Assembly (NCBI GenBank): GCA_048270185.1
Contig: JBLWTJ010000001.1
Coordinates: 832,001 to 896,000 of the forward strand
From: Bacteriovoracaceae bacterium
GTDB lineage: Bacteria > Bdellovibrionota > Bacteriovoracia > Bacteriovoracales > Bacteriovoracaceae
DNA: 64,000 nt
Direction of reading: 5' to 3'
Shown here: positions 9,099-40,838 of the stretch, piece by piece
Numbering within the stretch: the stretch's first letter is position 1
Layout: every line of letters starts with the position of its first letter
The notes under the pieces: model-generated
Seen by the model: the letters and a program-made list of their open reading frames with translations, nothing else
The model's database searches: none
Told to the model about the DNA's origin: nothing
Translations under genes and position numbers: made by a program

Positions 9099-9509
9099 CT
9101 AGAATCCATCTCCATCATTTTCAAAATCTTCAGTGTTATTTAAGAATGAACTAAGTGCATTTGGTTTACCATCTTTCGGAGGAATTGAAGTATCTTCTTT
9201 CCCTTTATCGTCAATACGGTGAACATAACGTCCAGTAATGTCTTCTTTTAGAACTTGCGAAGGTTTGAATGTAAGAACTCGTCTTGCAGAGATCTCCATT
9301 GCTTCACCAGTCTGTGGATTACGTCCCACTCTTGATGCTTTATCACGGATTGAGAAGTTTCCAAAACCAGAAATCTTCACTTTCTCACCACGTGCTAAAG
9401 TGTCCTTAATTACTTTAAATACTAGGTCTACAAGGTCAGACGCTTCTTTTTTTGAGAAGCCAGCTTCCTTATAAACTCTCTCGACAATATCAGCTTTAGT
9501 CAAGCTCAT
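9099..9509 (-). CDS. ihfA: Integration host factor alpha with C-terminal extension
   Basis: LTKADIVE, VKISGFGNF, GRNPQTGE and RRVLTFKPSQ motifs; GGAGG RBS before ATG 9509. Confidence 0.92.
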   Translation of the reverse strand: MSLTKADIVERVYKEAGFSKKEASDLVDLVFKVIKDTLARGEKVKISGFGNFSIRDKASRVGRNPQTGEAMEISARRVLTFKPSQVLKEDITGRYVHRIDDKGKEDTSIPPKDGKPNALSSFLNNTEDFENDGDGF

Positions 9510-9734
9510 TGCATTCCTCCATGAATCAAAAGAACCTTTATATATTAATAGGTTAGCAGAATAATACATATTGTACAAAAAAAATTTTGTAGGAAATATA
9601 TTTCTTTTTAATAACTTACAGACTCTGACCTTTAGCGCTTCATTTAAGAAAATTTTAAGTTGTTTGGATAAATAGAATCTATGTAAAATGTCTCTATCAA
9701 CTTCTTCTTGTCAAATTGGCGTATTGACATGAAC

Positions 9735-9800: not shown

Positions 9801-11264
9801 TTAAGATTTCTTCTTCACGGCCTTCTTTTTGGCCTTCTTCTTACCAAGTTTTTCTTGTTCCTTGGCAATTCTCTTTAGAAGCTTTTGCTTTTCTTGTTCT
9901 TTCTTCTTGAGAGTTTCACTAAGTTTAACATCAACATCGTTTAACTCTTCAATAAGTTTCTTAGCGACAAGCTTTGGTGACTTGGCAATTTTTGTATACT
10001 CTTCAAGCTTCTTCTTCTCATCTTTGATAAGAAGCTTTCTCTTCTCAACCTCATCTTTCGTCATACGATAGATTGGCATATCTGCTAGGTATTCAGAGTA
10101 TACGTATTTCTTCTTATCAAGGTGTTCAACAAAAGACTTTCTATTTTTCGACTTCGTCGCCTTTTCGTATTCTTTGTCCTTAATAAATCTAATAATTTCA
10201 TTATTCTTTTGAATTGAATCCTTAAGGTCAAGACATCTTAGCTCATATCGACGAGTTACGACTTTTAGTCTTTCTTGCGTGAAGATCTCAATAATCTCTT
10301 CTGCACGATTAAAGATCTTCACCCCTCTTTCAGAAATTAGAGTGTAGTTAGGAGATAGACTTGAAGTCGCACCAATTTTCTTTTGGGCCTCTTCTAGTGT
10401 TACTTCCTGACCTTTCTTAAAGAGCAATTCAATATTGATCTCATTATCAACAGATGCATCGACAAAATCTTTTAGGTATCCATCATCAATGAACTTCGTT
10501 AAATGACGATAAATCTTCTTCGCATCATACCCACGAGGTAATTCAGTAATAAAGATTTTTCCATTCTTCTGCTCAAAGCCCATATCAAAAGTTAACTTTC
10601 CAGTTTTCTTATCTTCATGAACAGGAAGAGAGTAATTATTAACATGAGGCTTAACCTTGCGGGCCTTACCTGTTTCAATAAATGAAATCATTGAACGAAT
10701 AATGTCTTTGTGATGAAAGCTTGGAATCGTTGAAGAAAATCCTGTTCCAATTCCCTCTGCTCCATTTAGTAACATGAGGGGAAGCTTTGGCAGAAGCCCT
10801 ACAGGTTCCATTGATCTCTCATCATAATTGGGAACCATTTCAACTTGGTTCATATCATCAAATAAGAGAATTTCAGAAACTTTACCAAGTTTACATTCAA
10901 TATACCTTCCGGCCGCAGGATCTGTTTCCATTCGCTCACCGAAGTATCCTTTCTTATCAATAAGAGGATAGTTATTCGAGAAGGTATAGTCTTGGGCCAT
11001 ATTAACAATCGCTGATTCAATTGAAGCAGGACCGTGAGGGTGTAGAGTTAGCACTAGCCCTGTGGCCGCCGAAACTTTGAGAAGACCTTTTGATTGATTC
11101 TTCCAAAGTGTATATAGAATTCGTCTTTGACCAGGCTTTAAACCATCTTGAAGATAAGGAATGGCACGATCCATCAGGGTATAAATCTGATAAGTACGGT
11201 ACTCATCTCTGACGATATCTTCGAGGTTAATTGACTCTAGGGAATGAAGATAAATTTCTTGCAT
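9801..11264 (-). CDS. Type IIA topoisomerase subunit A, short form without beta-pinwheel CTD
   Basis: DGLKPGQRRILY, HPHG, catalytic AAGRY, LLNGAEGIGTGF, ITELP; 487 aa. Confidence 0.93.
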   Translation of the reverse strand: MQEIYLHSLESINLEDIVRDEYRTYQIYTLMDRAIPYLQDGLKPGQRRILYTLWKNQSKGLLKVSAATGLVLTLHPHGPASIESAIVNMAQDYTFSNNYPLIDKKGYFGERMETDPAAGRYIECKLGKVSEILLFDDMNQVEMVPNYDERSMEPVGLLPKLPLMLLNGAEGIGTGFSSTIPSFHHKDIIRSMISFIETGKARKVKPHVNNYSLPVHEDKKTGKLTFDMGFEQKNGKIFITELPRGYDAKKIYRHLTKFIDDGYLKDFVDASVDNEINIELLFKKGQEVTLEEAQKKIGATSSLSPNYTLISERGVKIFNRAEEIIEIFTQERLKVVTRRYELRCLDLKDSIQKNNEIIRFIKDKEYEKATKSKNRKSFVEHLDKKKYVYSEYLADMPIYRMTKDEVEKRKLLIKDEKKKLEEYTKIAKSPKLVAKKLIEELNDVDVKLSETLKKKEQEKQKLLKRIAKEQEKLGKKKAKKKAVKKKS

Positions 11265-11286: not shown

Positions 11287-13485
11287 TTAATCAAGGTAAT
11301 CGATCATATCTGCTAGAACACCACTGGCCTTCTTGCTCACTGCTTTTTTCTTAGAGGCCTTGGTTGCTTTTTTGGCAACTTTTTTAGCGGCTTTCTTTGC
11401 TGTTTTTTTAGCGACTTTCTTTGCTGTTTTCTTAGCAGCTTTTTTGGCAACTTTCTTGGCAGCTTTTTTAGCAGGTTTCTTTGGTGCTACCGGCTCTTCT
11501 GGAGGTACACCTTCATTTAAAATCGTCGATTCTTCTTCATCAAGAAGAAGATCTTTTCTTAAATTCGTATCTTTTCCAAAGCAGATATTTAGCATCTCTT
11601 TTGCTTTGCTTGGTTTATCGATAACAATCTTAGTGTATTCTTCTTTTGAAAGAACATATTTCCAAGCTTCAGGAGACATCTCCCCTAATCCCTTGTTGCG
11701 ATGAATTTGTCTAATCTTTGCTTCACCTGCATTTCTAAACTCATCTAATTCTTTATCAGATTCAAAGTATAGAGTTTTCTTATCTGTTACAACCTCAAAA
11801 AGAGGTGCCTTAGCAATCTGGATGGCACCCATTTCAAATAATTCAGGCCAAAACTGGTAGAAGAAATTTGTAAGAAGTGTATTGATATGCCCACCATCGA
11901 CATCCGAGTCAGCGAGGAAGACAATATTAGAATAACGTAGCTTCTTCTCATCAACTTCTTGACCTAGGACTAATCCAACTGATGCCATGATGTCTGAGAA
12001 TTCTTGGTTATTTAAAATATCTTTAATTCCCGCTTGGGCAACATTCATTGGCTTACCTCGAAGGGCAATACCACCTTGATATAATTTATTACGAGCTGAC
12101 CTTAGTCCACCAATGGCCGAGTCTCCCTCACAAATAAAGAGAGTACAAAGATCACGTTTCTTTCGTTCGTTGGCATCAAGTAGTTTTTCAACTCTTTGAC
12201 GTTTTTGCTTACGGCCTTTTGATGCCGCTTCTTTGAGAACTTGATACTTATGACGAGATTTCCCTCTTTCAATAACAACTTCAAGATACTCTTTATTCTT
12301 ACGCATGAACTTATCAATATACTTGGCCATCAATTCCTCAAGGGCCTTTTCAAGCTGAACATCACGCACTAGTTTTCTCTTCGTCTGAGACTCAAACCTA
12401 GGGTTTGGCATCGTCACTCCAAGAACAAAAGTTAGGCCAGAAAGAATATCGTTATCAACTAACTTAATCTTTTCTTTCTTTGCTTGTCTTTCTAACTTGT
12501 CTTTAATGGCATTGATAAAGATACGTCTAACACGATCATGGTGGAAACCACCGTCATATGTAGGAGTTGAATTGACGAAAGAAATAAATTTTTCACGCTC
12601 TTCACTCGATTTATCAATATTAAGAGAAAGAGACATATCAATCTTCCCCTTAACTTTCTTCTTCTTTGTATTTATTGTTTCGTAGACATAACTTGCTTCA
12701 CCAAAGTCATGAGCATTTGCCTCATCAATTCTTTGGGCCAGTTCAAAGAGTCCTTTGTTATAGTGATACTTTTCACCATTAAAAAAGAAGGCAAGACCTG
12801 GGTTATTATATGCAAGGTCAATAATACGCTTTCTCAATAGATCTTCATCGATAACATTATTCTTATAGACTTCTTTGGCAAGAGTTACTTGAATCGATAC
12901 ACCAGAAGCACCTTTGAAAGTCTTTGGTTTTGTTTGGCTTATCTTAAGAGCACCATCGATAAATTTCGTCGTCTGCTCTTTCTTCGAATTATAGTGCTTA
13001 ATCGTTACAATAAATTCATCTGCAGTAAGACATGTGGCCGCGGCACCTAGACCATTTTGTCCAAGTGTACGATGAAGAAATCCCTTCTCATCTGTTTCTT
13101 CGTCTTTAAACTTTGAACCTGTTCTAAACTCTGAATAAACCTGCTTTACTTTATTAAGTGGAAAACCAATCCCATTGTCGGCAACTGTAACAGTCTTACC
13201 ATCAGCACTTAGAGAAGTGTGAATCTCTGTAACGTGTCCGCGGTAGTATTCATCAATACAATTATCAAGTAGCTCCTCAATGGCCTTTGATTTTGCTTGG
13301 TGAAATTTAACGGTTTGAAAGTCGACTGACTTATCTTGGTAAACGTAAGTTTCTAAATCTTCGATATCATTAGATCCAAAGACCAGGGTAATACGATTTC
13401 GACAGTGCCATCTCTGATCTTTACTCTCAATGACGGCGTCTTTCGTCTTACCTTTACGATTTACCTTTTCAATGCTGCGTCCCAT
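11287..13485 (-). CDS. Type IIA topoisomerase subunit B with Lys/Ala-rich tail
   Basis: GHKL motifs ELLDNCIDE, DNGIG and GQNGLG; FESQTK; TOPRIM motifs EGDSA, LRGK and DSDVDG; NKGLGEM. Confidence 0.93.
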   Translation of the reverse strand: MGRSIEKVNRKGKTKDAVIESKDQRWHCRNRITLVFGSNDIEDLETYVYQDKSVDFQTVKFHQAKSKAIEELLDNCIDEYYRGHVTEIHTSLSADGKTVTVADNGIGFPLNKVKQVYSEFRTGSKFKDEETDEKGFLHRTLGQNGLGAAATCLTADEFIVTIKHYNSKKEQTTKFIDGALKISQTKPKTFKGASGVSIQVTLAKEVYKNNVIDEDLLRKRIIDLAYNNPGLAFFFNGEKYHYNKGLFELAQRIDEANAHDFGEASYVYETINTKKKKVKGKIDMSLSLNIDKSSEEREKFISFVNSTPTYDGGFHHDRVRRIFINAIKDKLERQAKKEKIKLVDNDILSGLTFVLGVTMPNPRFESQTKRKLVRDVQLEKALEELMAKYIDKFMRKNKEYLEVVIERGKSRHKYQVLKEAASKGRKQKRQRVEKLLDANERKKRDLCTLFICEGDSAIGGLRSARNKLYQGGIALRGKPMNVAQAGIKDILNNQEFSDIMASVGLVLGQEVDEKKLRYSNIVFLADSDVDGGHINTLLTNFFYQFWPELFEMGAIQIAKAPLFEVVTDKKTLYFESDKELDEFRNAGEAKIRQIHRNKGLGEMSPEAWKYVLSKEEYTKIVIDKPSKAKEMLNICFGKDTNLRKDLLLDEEESTILNEGVPPEEPVAPKKPAKKAAKKVAKKAAKKTAKKVAKKTAKKAAKKVAKKATKASKKKAVSKKASGVLADMIDYLD

Positions 13486-38494: not shown

Positions 38495-39835
38495 ATGGCA
38501 GCGATTAAGCCACAAAATGCAAAAGGGACAAGAGATTTCGGTCCAATCGAATCAGCAAGAAGAAATTTTATTTTTGAGACGATCAAAGAACGCTTCCAGT
38601 CACATGGTTTCATGCCACTTGAAACTCCAGCAGTTGAAAATCTAAATGTTCTAACAGGTAAATACGGAGAGGAAGGAGATAAACTTCTTTTTCGCGTTCT
38701 AAACTCAGGTGACTTTCTAAAGAAAGTAAAACCACAAGACTTAGAAGAAAAAAACCTTGGGGCCGTCTCAAGTAAGATGTGTGATCGTGGGCTACGTTAT
38801 GATCTAACAATTCCATTTGCCCGTTTTGTTTGTGCCAACCTAAATGATCTGGCCCTGCCATTTAAGCGCTATCAAATCCAACCAGTATGGCGAGCTGACC
38901 GTCCTCAAAAAGGTCGCTACCGCGAATTCTACCAATGTGATGGTGACATCATTGGAACAGAATCTCTTCTTAGTGAAGTTTCACTTGTTGAAGTTTATCA
39001 CGATGTTTTCAATGACCTAAAAATCGACGGTGTTGAAATCGTCATTAATAATAGAAAAATCCTCCAAGGAATCGCAAGTGTTCTTGGCGTTAGCGACAAG
39101 CTAACGGATATGACAGTTGCCATTGATAAGCTCGATAAAATTGGAGCTGAAAAAGTTGGCGAAGAACTTCTTGGCCGTGGCTTTAGTGCCGATCAAGTTG
39201 CAAAGCTATCGACTCTTCTAACACTTGAAGGCGATTCAGATAAGAAGCTTGCGACAATTAAGTCATTCTTAGGTGAAGATGAAATCGGAAAACTTGGACT
39301 AGAAGAACTTGAATTTGTTCTATCAAATGTAAGTGAACTTGGAATTGAGAATTTAGTATTTGATCCTACTCTTGCAAGAGGCCTTGACTACTACACAGGT
39401 TGCATCTTTGAAGTAAAACTTGTGGACGGTTCAATGGGAAGCATCGGTGGCGGTGGACGCTATGATGATCTTACAAGTATGTTTGGCCAAAAAGAAAAGC
39501 TCTCGGGAGTTGGAATCTCTTTTGGTGCAGAAAGAATTTATGATGTCATGCTTGATCGTGGCCTCTTTGAAGATATTAGTGCCAGCGTTGATTATATGAT
39601 CATCAATATGAGTGATGAGGATCAAAAAGAATATCTTAAAATTGCTCGCAAGTTTAGAGCTCAAGGTCATTCAATTGAGATCTACCCTACTTCGGCAAAG
39701 ATGAAGAAGCAGATGACTTACGCTAATAAGCGTGGGGTTAAGAATGTGATCTTCTATGGGGAAGCTGAGAAAGAGAAAGGTGTTCTGCAAGTCAAGAACA
39801 TGGAATCTGGGGAACAATCAGAAATTCAAAAATAG
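38495..39835 (+). CDS. hisS: Histidyl-tRNA synthetase
   Basis: KGTRDF, LRYDLT, WRADRPQKGRYREFYQCD, LARGLDYYTG, GGGRYD. Confidence 0.98.
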   Translation: MAAIKPQNAKGTRDFGPIESARRNFIFETIKERFQSHGFMPLETPAVENLNVLTGKYGEEGDKLLFRVLNSGDFLKKVKPQDLEEKNLGAVSSKMCDRGLRYDLTIPFARFVCANLNDLALPFKRYQIQPVWRADRPQKGRYREFYQCDGDIIGTESLLSEVSLVEVYHDVFNDLKIDGVEIVINNRKILQGIASVLGVSDKLTDMTVAIDKLDKIGAEKVGEELLGRGFSADQVAKLSTLLTLEGDSDKKLATIKSFLGEDEIGKLGLEELEFVLSNVSELGIENLVFDPTLARGLDYYTGCIFEVKLVDGSMGSIGGGGRYDDLTSMFGQKEKLSGVGISFGAERIYDVMLDRGLFEDISASVDYMIINMSDEDQKEYLKIARKFRAQGHSIEIYPTSAKMKKQMTYANKRGVKNVIFYGEAEKEKGVLQVKNMESGEQSEIQK

Positions 39836-39885
39836 TCGACTTCTGCTCCTGCCTCTCGTCGACATACCGTCTATCCTCGACATAA
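39835..39885 (+). repeat. REP-like structured repeat, copy 2
   Basis: Starts in the hisS stop codon; 42/51 match to the reverse complement of 21568-21618. Confidence 0.8.
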
Positions 39886-39918
39886 AAAAAAGCCACTCTA
39901 AGAGTGGCCTTTTTATTT
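39884..39918. terminator. Bidirectional intrinsic terminator between hisS and the histone gene
   Basis: A-run, gccactc-taa-gagtggc stem, T-run. Confidence 0.8.
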
Positions 39919-39940: not shown

Positions 39941-40201
39941 TTATCCAAGGATATCGTATGGACGAATAGTCTTTCTACCGTTAGCTGTACATCTCTTTTG
40001 AGCTTGATCAACTAGCCAGTATACGTACTCGTTCATAGCTTCAAGAGCGTCTGAAGATACATTGTATCCTTTACCCTTAAGTGCTTCTTTAGTCTTAGAA
40101 CCAACTAGTAGCATTTCTTTTTTCTTAGATGCTGCTTTCTTAGTTGTTTTCTTAGCTGCCTTCTTTGGAGCTGCTTTTTTAGTAGCTTTTTTCTTTGCCA
40201 T
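39941..40201 (-). CDS. Bacterial histone (Bd0055/HBb-like) with Lys/Ala-rich N-terminal tail
   Basis: Core EMLLVGSKTKEALK..GYNVSSDALEAM...A.....GRKTIRPYDI fits the histone fold with the RKTxxxxD clamp; GAGG RBS. Confidence 0.9.
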   Translation of the reverse strand: MAKKKATKKAAPKKAAKKTTKKAASKKKEMLLVGSKTKEALKGKGYNVSSDALEAMNEYVYWLVDQAQKRCTANGRKTIRPYDILG

Positions 40202-40391
40202 TTTAAACCTCTTGTTTAGTAGTTTTTAACGAAAAATATCTTATATTGTAATTTTAAGGACCTAGCTTAATGAACGTCAATAAAAAAAACGGATTGCCAC
40301 CTTTAATTGCCAAAAAAAGCCCCTAATCTCAACTAAATAAGTGGGTAAATCGGTCACCTTTGCAGCGATTTTGATCTTAAGGTAATCTTTC

Positions 40392-40838
40392 ATGATGGAC
40401 ATCCAAGATATTAGAATTGCTACACAGAAAAGTAATCAATTCATTCTCGCTTTCGAAAACCTCACGAGTAATACAGAGGTCCTCGACACCAGTAAGAGTC
40501 AATTAGTTCTGCTTGAGAGTCCTACTCAAATCTGTGCACTCATACCAAAGAAAAGTTGTGCTAACGGACACCGAATTGAACTTTATATTATTCAAGCAAA
40601 TGATCTTCAAAAGAATCAAATTAATGATATTCGAAAGGCTCCAAAAGCAATTCGCCTCTCTTGTATCGTCAAGGATCTTGAAGAGTATAACGAAGAACAA
40701 AACCATGTTGTTTTCAAAGTACTTGAGGACAATATTGGTCAACATAAAGAAATAGAAGCCGTCATCTTAGAGCGACAAGAAAATTTTAATAATCTCATTA
40801 AAGAGTTTAGAAACACACAAATTGTAGAAGACGAGTAA
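40392..40838 (+). CDS. Hypothetical protein
   Basis: ORF ends 4 bp before the next gene; no recognised motif. Confidence 0.55.
   Translation: MMDIQDIRIATQKSNQFILAFENLTSNTEVLDTSKSQLVLLESPTQICALIPKKSCANGHRIELYIIQANDLQKNQINDIRKAPKAIRLSCIVKDLEEYNEEQNHVVFKVLEDNIGQHKEIEAVILERQENFNNLIKEFRNTQIVEDE

Follow-up and report, generated by a model that had tools for sequence, protein, structure and literature searches.

A probable face-to-face histone with a variable lysine-rich N-terminal tail in a bacterium of the Bacteriovoracaceae

To our knowledge, the experimental study of bacterial histones began only in 2023. Structural and DNA-binding work has been published on HBb (Bd0055) of Bdellovibrio bacteriovorus (PDB 8CMP, 8FVX) and on HLp of Leptospira perolatii (PDB 9QT0/9QT1/9QT2); in the portions of that literature drawn on here, the solved chains are 64-66 aa long and have little N-terminal to the histone core. 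The alpha3 histones are defined by a histone fold with a short alpha2 and an alpha3 of only a few residues (Schwab 2024, PMC11390915). The same source places face-to-face (FtF) histones in the Bdellovibrionota class Bacteriovoracia, and describes tails as common on the bacterial FtF histones and as mostly positively charged. For HLp, a tetramer with about 60 bp of DNA wrapped around it has been described (Hu et al. 2025, PMC12701072). What holds its tetramer together is R49, S52 and N53 from one chain, joined to F63, T61 and R55 from the partner chain; R49, N53 and R55 are reported to be conserved across the tetrameric bacterial FtF histones, and the first six residues of the protein are unseen in the DNA-bound crystals (PMC12701072). 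HBb, by contrast, is described as a histone that occurs only as a dimer and bends or coats DNA, and the sections of the literature used here give it neither the R and N interface residues nor a long tail.

Here, we compare with these systems a histone gene found in a 64,000-nucleotide stretch of DNA, hereafter the window, which comprises positions 832,001 to 896,000 of contig JBLWTJ010000001.1 in the Bacteriovoracaceae assembly GCA_048270185.1. The source genome amounts to 3.35 Mb in 30 contigs, has a GC content of 36.6% and is 95.9% complete. The features of the locus, in window coordinates, are as follows.

39941..40201, minus strand: the histone gene, 86 codons and a TAA stop, with an ATG start (ORF list and translation)
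40118..40201, minus strand: the tail-coding part, residues 1-28 with 14 lysines (composition, AF2 model, Tandem Repeats Finder)
39944..40117, minus strand: the histone-fold core, residues 29-86 (AF2 model, Foldseek, phmmer against the PDB)
40208..40213, minus strand: Shine-Dalgarno sequence AAGAGG, 6 nt 5' of the ATG, in which GAGG was scored at a spacing of 6
40251..40280, minus strand: weak promoter-like sequence TTGACG-18-TAAAAT, matching 10/12 consensus positions (consensus scan)
39884..39909, minus strand: intrinsic terminator, a GC hairpin followed by U8, apparently bidirectional and common to hisS; with its A8 and T-run flanks the hairpin occupies 39884-39918

The open reading frame is real, far beyond what chance would produce, and the ORF list, the translation and the composition all bear out an earlier note, made from the letters of the window, that read it as an 86-aa protein with a 28-aa tail containing 14 lysines. 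Since it is convergent with hisS (38495-39835, plus strand, Pfam tRNA-synt_His) and divergent from the gene on its other side, which starts at 40392 on the plus strand, the histone gene stands alone. The hairpin at its 3' end is strong (MFE -22.2 kcal/mol, z -5.4, equalled in 0/200 shuffles); because there is an A8 on its far side and the hairpin scan enters it on the plus strand, the terminator would seem to act in both directions and to be common to the convergent hisS. The gene had been called monocistronic with its own terminator; its solitary position and the strong hairpin agree with that description, but the terminator is shared and so not strictly its own. Promoter-like sites were no commoner than chance in the consensus scan (2 found against 2.8 expected in shuffles), and no conserved operon or neighborhood was found among 29 loci compared over 1.5-kb flanks: hisS and the two genes on the far side adjoin the histone in only 1/29, the single positive being a genome of the same genus.

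The AF2 model of the protein is a monomer, built on 35 homologues with a mean pLDDT of 76, and is silent on the oligomeric state. For the 58-residue core, which ends NGRKTIRPYDILG, it predicts (core pLDDT 86-94) an alpha1 helix at residues 34-42, an alpha2 at 50-73 and a truncated alpha3 of 5 residues at 81-85; as modelled, the core is an alpha3-truncated histone fold. The best Foldseek matches are all alpha3 histones, and model and matches together uphold the earlier reading of a single histone fold. Against the PDB, HLp came first in Foldseek (9qt1_A, TMt 0.91, rmsd 1.0 A; 9qt0_A, TMt 0.92, rmsd 0.9 A) with an identity of 45-46%, followed by HBb (TMt 0.84-0.88, 33% identity), and the archaeal FtF histone HTkC was matched at 37-38% identity. 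The phmmer search of the PDB gave E 6.2e-12 for HLp, 1.3e-3 for HBb and 7.2e-3 for HTkC. The family models fell short of their cut-offs, Pfam CBFD_NFYB_HMF scoring 19.5 bits (cut-off 21.4) and NCBIfam archaea_histone 15.9 bits (cut-off 50). Weak matches to NinG, to ATP synthase gamma and to alpha-synuclein chains of the PDB were rejected, as they reflect the low complexity of the lysine-rich tail.

The residues that matter most for the architecture of HLp can be followed into this protein with the phmmer alignment, in which the numbering of the HLp paper equals our residue number minus 21. The interface trio R49/N53/R55 of HLp aligns to R70, N74 and R76, all of which are present; N74 and R76 are invariant in the 35 aligned homologues, and position 70 of homologues is R or K. 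The DNA-contacting S14, K15, K17 and K21 align to S35, K36 and K38, which are invariant, and to K42, which is nearly so. The RxTxxxxD motif, or RD clamp, of loop L2 is there as well (R76-K-T78-I-R-P-Y-D83), its R76, T78 and D83 being invariant in the same alignment. With HLp the protein thus has in common the alpha3-truncated fold, the R/N/R trio, the RD clamp and the S-K-x-K of alpha1. It differs from HLp at several interface or contact positions (S52->A73, T61->Y82, F63->I84, T27->V48, G29->S50), in an L2 that reads R-K-T, as in HBb and the nucleosomal histones, and not R-T-T, and in its N terminus: the solved HLp chain of 65 aa has only a short stretch N-terminal to the core, where our histone carries 28 tail residues with 14 lysines. 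By sequence it lies nearer to the FtF members than to the other alpha3 categories, and HLp is also first by fold. Every sequence-level feature of the FtF histones that we examined is present, and to judge from these features the family assignment moves from HBb, with whose core the protein had at first been grouped, to FtF/HLp.

A protein that works like HBb, as a dimer that bends DNA and has simply gained a tail, is nonetheless a reading that the comparison must address. It could appeal to an HBb fold match that is also strong and to the G-R-K-T of L2 that both proteins share. The two also have the phylum and the alpha3-truncated fold in common. However, sequence similarity to HBb lies nine orders of magnitude below that to HLp, and HBb has Ser and Asp where this histone has R70 and N74, two interface residues that the bacterial dimers, as presented in the sections of Schwab 2024 (PMC11390915) relied on here, lack. 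The marks of the HBb-type bacterial dimer are accordingly not found, R70 and N74 being present and the HBb match reaching only E 1.3e-3. Moreover, the genome has a separate paralogue which is the HBb-like one, and we regard a dimer-only histone at this locus as quite unlikely.

That second histone-fold gene was matched at 261525-261749 of contig C3 (about 1469-1731 on the plus strand of the extracted locus). HBb is its best solved relative (E 4.1e-9, against 5.1e-6 for HLp), and its N-terminal extension of ~35 residues is not lysine-rich and has no Cys; because the extension is without Cys, it is not a ZZ histone. The earlier note had proposed a check for a tail-less paralogue, and a paralogue does exist, of the HBb-like kind, but it bears an N-terminal extension of its own that is different and not lysine-rich. 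Weak second matches of an HBb-like kind occur in many of the relatives in our 61-genome survey. The bacterial dimers are reported mainly from the class Bdellovibrionia (Schwab 2024, PMC11390915); the source genome, a member of the Bacteriovoracia, holds both the FtF and the HBb-like types. It also holds three HU/IHF genes, whereas Leptospira is reported to be without HU; hence the histone need not be the main organiser of the nucleoid, unlike what has been proposed for Leptospira. One of the three lies in the window (9099-9578, minus strand; Bac_DNA_binding, E 7.3e-32) and encodes a C-terminal extension of ~45 residues with an acidic end.

The tailed histone has many relatives. Among 1586 candidates, 525 proteins matched at E <= 1e-3, of which we examined the best 120; the closest, among the matches listed, come from Halobacteriovorax, Bacteriovorax, Halobacteriovoraceae and Bdellovibrionota, and include several named Halobacteriovorax strains. 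In a survey of 61 family genomes (one per genus, plus the source genome), a match at E <= 1e-3 was obtained in 44 and none in 17; 35 of the 44 were strong (E <= 1.7e-17) and 9 only weak (5.3e-7 to 7.8e-4). An HMMER search with the 58-residue core retrieved 237 cluster representatives at E <= 1e-3, the best 150 of which comprise 116 singlets and 34 doublets. The doublets are ~118-130 aa long (P0121-P0130 and others) and several of them outrank all singlets; a doublet histone has been reported for Bacteriovorax sp. ICPB 3264, and is not of the type described here. N-terminal extensions were surveyed in the 91 singlets, among these best 150 of 237, in which the whole core aligned and the C-terminal extension was <=12 aa. 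Their median length was 15 aa, with 57 reaching >=10 aa and 24 reaching >=25 aa; 44 of the 57 have a net charge of at least +3 and 24 of the 57 are at least 35% Lys. An extension of >=25 aa with >=10 Lys was present in 13/91, a figure that includes one 650-aa multidomain protein and one start that is probably over-called, and tails of similar size and kind thus turn up again and again, in roughly a dozen distinct clusters defined at 50% identity. This survey, together with Schwab 2024 (PMC11390915) as far as it was drawn on here, supersedes the idea that only eukaryotic histones and a few archaeal ones bear such tails.

Because the core itself begins with a methionine, the evidence that the tail is made deserves attention. 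An in-frame basic extension N-terminal to the core start was present in 120/120 of the best 120 of 525 homologues, and in 109/120 of these the protein begins M-[A/S]-K. Counted up to the conserved core start, a measure that gives 29 for P0001, the tails of these 120 are 6-47 aa long (median 22), with >=15 aa in 100/120 and <=8 in 10/120. We also compared the translation signals of 30 loci, the histone locus and those of 29 other genomes: a 4-nt Shine-Dalgarno core lies 4-12 nt 5' of the tail start in 23/30 of them. Two of the 30 loci open the core with ACA or GTT and not with a start codon, so that only the tail start would be usable in them; at two loci, L027 and L034, we found no tail with an ATG start. 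One RNA-library contig covers 39937-40220, running from the stop codon to a point 19 nt 5' of the ATG; compared with our tail it has lost 3 nt and gained 27 nt, each change keeping the frame. The library is that of a relative and not of the same strain, consists of contigs only and may contain DNA. The run shared 0.06 of the sampled words, and 5/5 compared pieces were <90% alike; the parts left uncovered prove nothing, and the contig depths of 88.5 for the histone and 7.15 for hisS cannot rank expression.

Initiation at the internal Met30, so that the tail is absent or both forms are made, was the outcome that could have undone the earlier note. It draws on the near invariance of the Met at the core start in the 35-sequence alignment and on the start codon found there in 28/30 loci. 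Yet a Shine-Dalgarno core precedes this Met in 0/30 loci, as against 23/30 for the tail start, two loci have ACA or GTT in its place, and the upstream frame is open and lysine-rich in 120/120 of the best 120 of 525 homologues. HLp, moreover, has Thr at the corresponding position, which argues that the core Met is a structural residue. We conclude from these comparisons that the tail is very probably translated, and consider an internal start extremely improbable.

What kind of tail is it? Residues 1-28 (MAKKKATKKAAPKKAAKKTTKKAASKKK) consist of 14 K, 8 A, 3 T, 1 S, 1 P and 1 M, with a net charge of +14 and no Arg, Gly or Gln. As the AF2 pLDDT is <50 over residues 1-24, the tail is predicted to be disordered; model and composition thus sustain the reading of a disordered lysine-rich N-terminal tail on a histone fold. 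Its DNA is made of imperfect 12- and 15-nt repeats (Tandem Repeats Finder rows at 40131-40165 and 40153-40187), and the homologue P0003, with 100% identity over the aligned 67%, has a tail that is 8 residues longer. In the pooled tails of the best 120 of 525 homologues, K makes up 46.7%, A 22.8%, T 10.1%, S 4.1% and P 2.6%, the residues R, G and Q accounting for only 1.3%, 0.6% and 0.2%; the median K fraction of these tails is 0.48 and their net charge ranges from +2 to +19, with a median of +10. The distant locus L042 encodes a tail rich in Arg and Thr, which suggests that the charge of the tail is kept and its sequence is not.

Eukaryotic core histones and Asgard archaeal histones, in the descriptions available to us, likewise carry a basic, disordered stretch N-terminal to their histone fold. 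Eukaryotic histone tails contain Arg, Gly and Gln in fixed motifs. The present tail has none of these three residues and, in the best 120 of 525 homologues, no constant sequence over its 6-47 aa, so that fixed, conserved sites are not found, and the core beneath it is alpha3-truncated and not nucleosomal. Short K/A/P/T repeats with copy-number polymorphism, the signature of H1-like repeat tails, are found instead. They have counterparts in Mycobacterium HupB and Ku, Pseudomonas AlgP and Chlamydia Hc2, which as far as described in the sources used here combine short K/A/P repeats, disorder and polymorphism of repeat number; the repeats are C-terminal in Ku and AlgP and form part of Hc2, and none of these three proteins is credited there with a histone fold, whereas here the repeat is N-terminal on such a fold. 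By its composition and variability, then, the tail resembles the H1-like lysine-rich tails (AlgP, Hc2) and those of HupB and Ku more closely than a core-histone tail. The term "eukaryote-like", applied to it in the earlier note, fits poorly with a K/A/T/P repeat without R, G or Q that recurs on many proteins of the genome.

The same comparison bears on the suggestion that the tail is regulatory in the eukaryotic manner, with acetyl or methyl groups added to its lysines in the course of the predatory cycle. Its 14 lysines, lying in a disordered stretch, would offer substrates, and a single gene each of the Hist_deacetyl and SIR2 families is present in the genome. These genes are, however, not diagnostic, since the two families also gave matches in 9 and 10 of the 14 control genomes, and no SET domain was found in the genome, which is 95.9% complete. 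Neither the sequence nor the length of the tail is conserved, and so no fixed modification sites are to be expected; we judge a regulatory tail of this sort to be highly unlikely.

The repeat is not confined to the histone. In the source genome, by inspection and Pfam, the (A/V/T)KK repeat of its tail was recognized on 12 or more further proteins encoded there. A crude scan of six-frame ORFs of >=50 aa, spurious ones included, gave >=11 K in a 25-aa window for 29/9108 ORFs, the histone ORF having 13. Topoisomerase I (C1:1138703-1141249, minus strand) carries an N-terminal repeat of ~70 residues ahead of its Toprim domain. In the window itself, a GyrA/ParC-like protein of 487 aa with the DNA_topoisoIV domain only (9801-11264, minus strand) and an adjoining GyrB-like protein of 732 aa (11287-13485, minus strand) both end in a C-terminal repeat; at 487 aa, the A-like subunit is too short for the usual C-terminal domain. 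A protein that on reading its sequence resembles IF-2 has the repeat, as does, at its C terminus, a zinc protease. More unexpected are two metabolic enzymes without a known role with nucleic acids, a fumarate hydratase with an N-terminal repeat of ~100 residues (C1:716823-718010, minus strand) and a PNP_UDP_1 phosphorylase, also with an N-terminal repeat (C1:1735567-1736649, minus strand). Finally, at least four proteins consist mostly of the repeat, of which they contain up to ~175 residues, and two of these stand-alone proteins have strongly acidic C-terminal halves. They matched no Pfam family, and NCBIfam matches them only far below cut-off. Their positions in the genome (G000) are given below.

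C2:333548-334492: stand-alone repeat protein (L014)
C2:348016-349056: stand-alone repeat protein (L013)
C1:1220173-1220679: stand-alone repeat protein (L011)
C1:98417-99211: stand-alone repeat protein (L012)

No paper on a shared repeat-tail system in the Bdellovibrionota was found in our literature search. Nor did that search, within the texts it covered, find any on these tails in this lineage, and no experimentally characterised tailed FtF histone of the Bdellovibrionota was found in the literature examined.

Taken by analogy with HLp, the observations make it likely that this is an FtF alpha3-truncated histone of Halobacteriovorax, with a tetrameric, DNA-wrapping core and tails that serve as electrostatic arms. 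The 58-residue core would pair into dimers, and two dimers would close as a ring-shaped tetramer around which about 60 bp of DNA could wrap without sequence preference, held by the Ser and Lys residues of alpha1 and by the R-K-T of L2. The four K/A/T/P tails of such a tetramer would bring ~+56 of charge, or about half the number of phosphates (120) in 60 bp. As non-specific electrostatic arms, the tails may strengthen binding to DNA and offset the charge of its wrapped or linker parts, and in this way aid compaction, much as lysine-rich tails do on other nucleoid proteins of bacteria; tail length would shift fast by in-frame gain or loss of short repeats. Schwab 2024 (PMC11390915) describes tailed FtF histones of this same category in this same host class, the Bacteriovoracia.

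Such variability invites the opposite view, that repeat slippage in an AT-rich genome has produced the tail as an almost neutral side effect, without any specific role, and that the core works alone. Tails of 6-47 aa sit on cores that are 69-100% identical (best 120 of 525), and across genera they range from 0 to 38 aa in the 30 loci; the tail DNA is an imperfect 12/15-nt repeat in a genome of 36.6% GC, and the fumarate hydratase, the PNP_UDP_1 phosphorylase and the zinc protease carry the same repeat. Lysine-rich tails are said to arise easily in AT-rich DNA, and those of some Leptospira histones and of HupB were probably gained by frame extension there (review, PMC10919886, in the portion used here). 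Against this, most lineages have retained a basic tail (>=15 aa in 100/120 of the best 120 of 525), a net charge of at least +3 is found in 44/57 of the N-extensions of >=10 aa among the wider representatives, and the reading frame is unbroken in all homologues examined. Composition, too, has remained K/A/T/P, whereas drift ought to have altered it. A neutral tail is therefore unlikely in our estimation, and we retain the reading of the tails as electrostatic arms; nonetheless, because near-tail-less orthologues exist within the family and the same repeat is present on metabolic enzymes, the tail may contribute little.

The protein is, in sum, a catalogued type of histone on which tails are common; it is a good object of study and not a new kind of protein. 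The known picture is unchanged, since the family, its presence in the class Bacteriovoracia and its tails are already in print in the sources as used here. Close relatives of this histone differ mainly in tail length, with 6-47 residues on near-identical cores among the best 120 of 525. Nature thus supplies a graded series of tail lengths, in a lineage that includes named strains, which is suited to testing the role of a bacterial histone tail, be it in wrapping, compaction or regulation. We put forward, only tentatively and as a rather doubtful possibility, that one chain may join a DNA-wrapping FtF core with four H1-like polylysine arms, and belong to a genome-wide set of proteins with the (A/V/T)KK repeat. 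If this were true, the quickly changing number of repeats would tune the packing of the nucleoid in a small predator, and the repeat would draw the histone to the nucleoid or to another polyanion phase, along with topoisomerase I, the two type IIA topoisomerase proteins, IF-2, several enzymes and four or more stand-alone repeat proteins.
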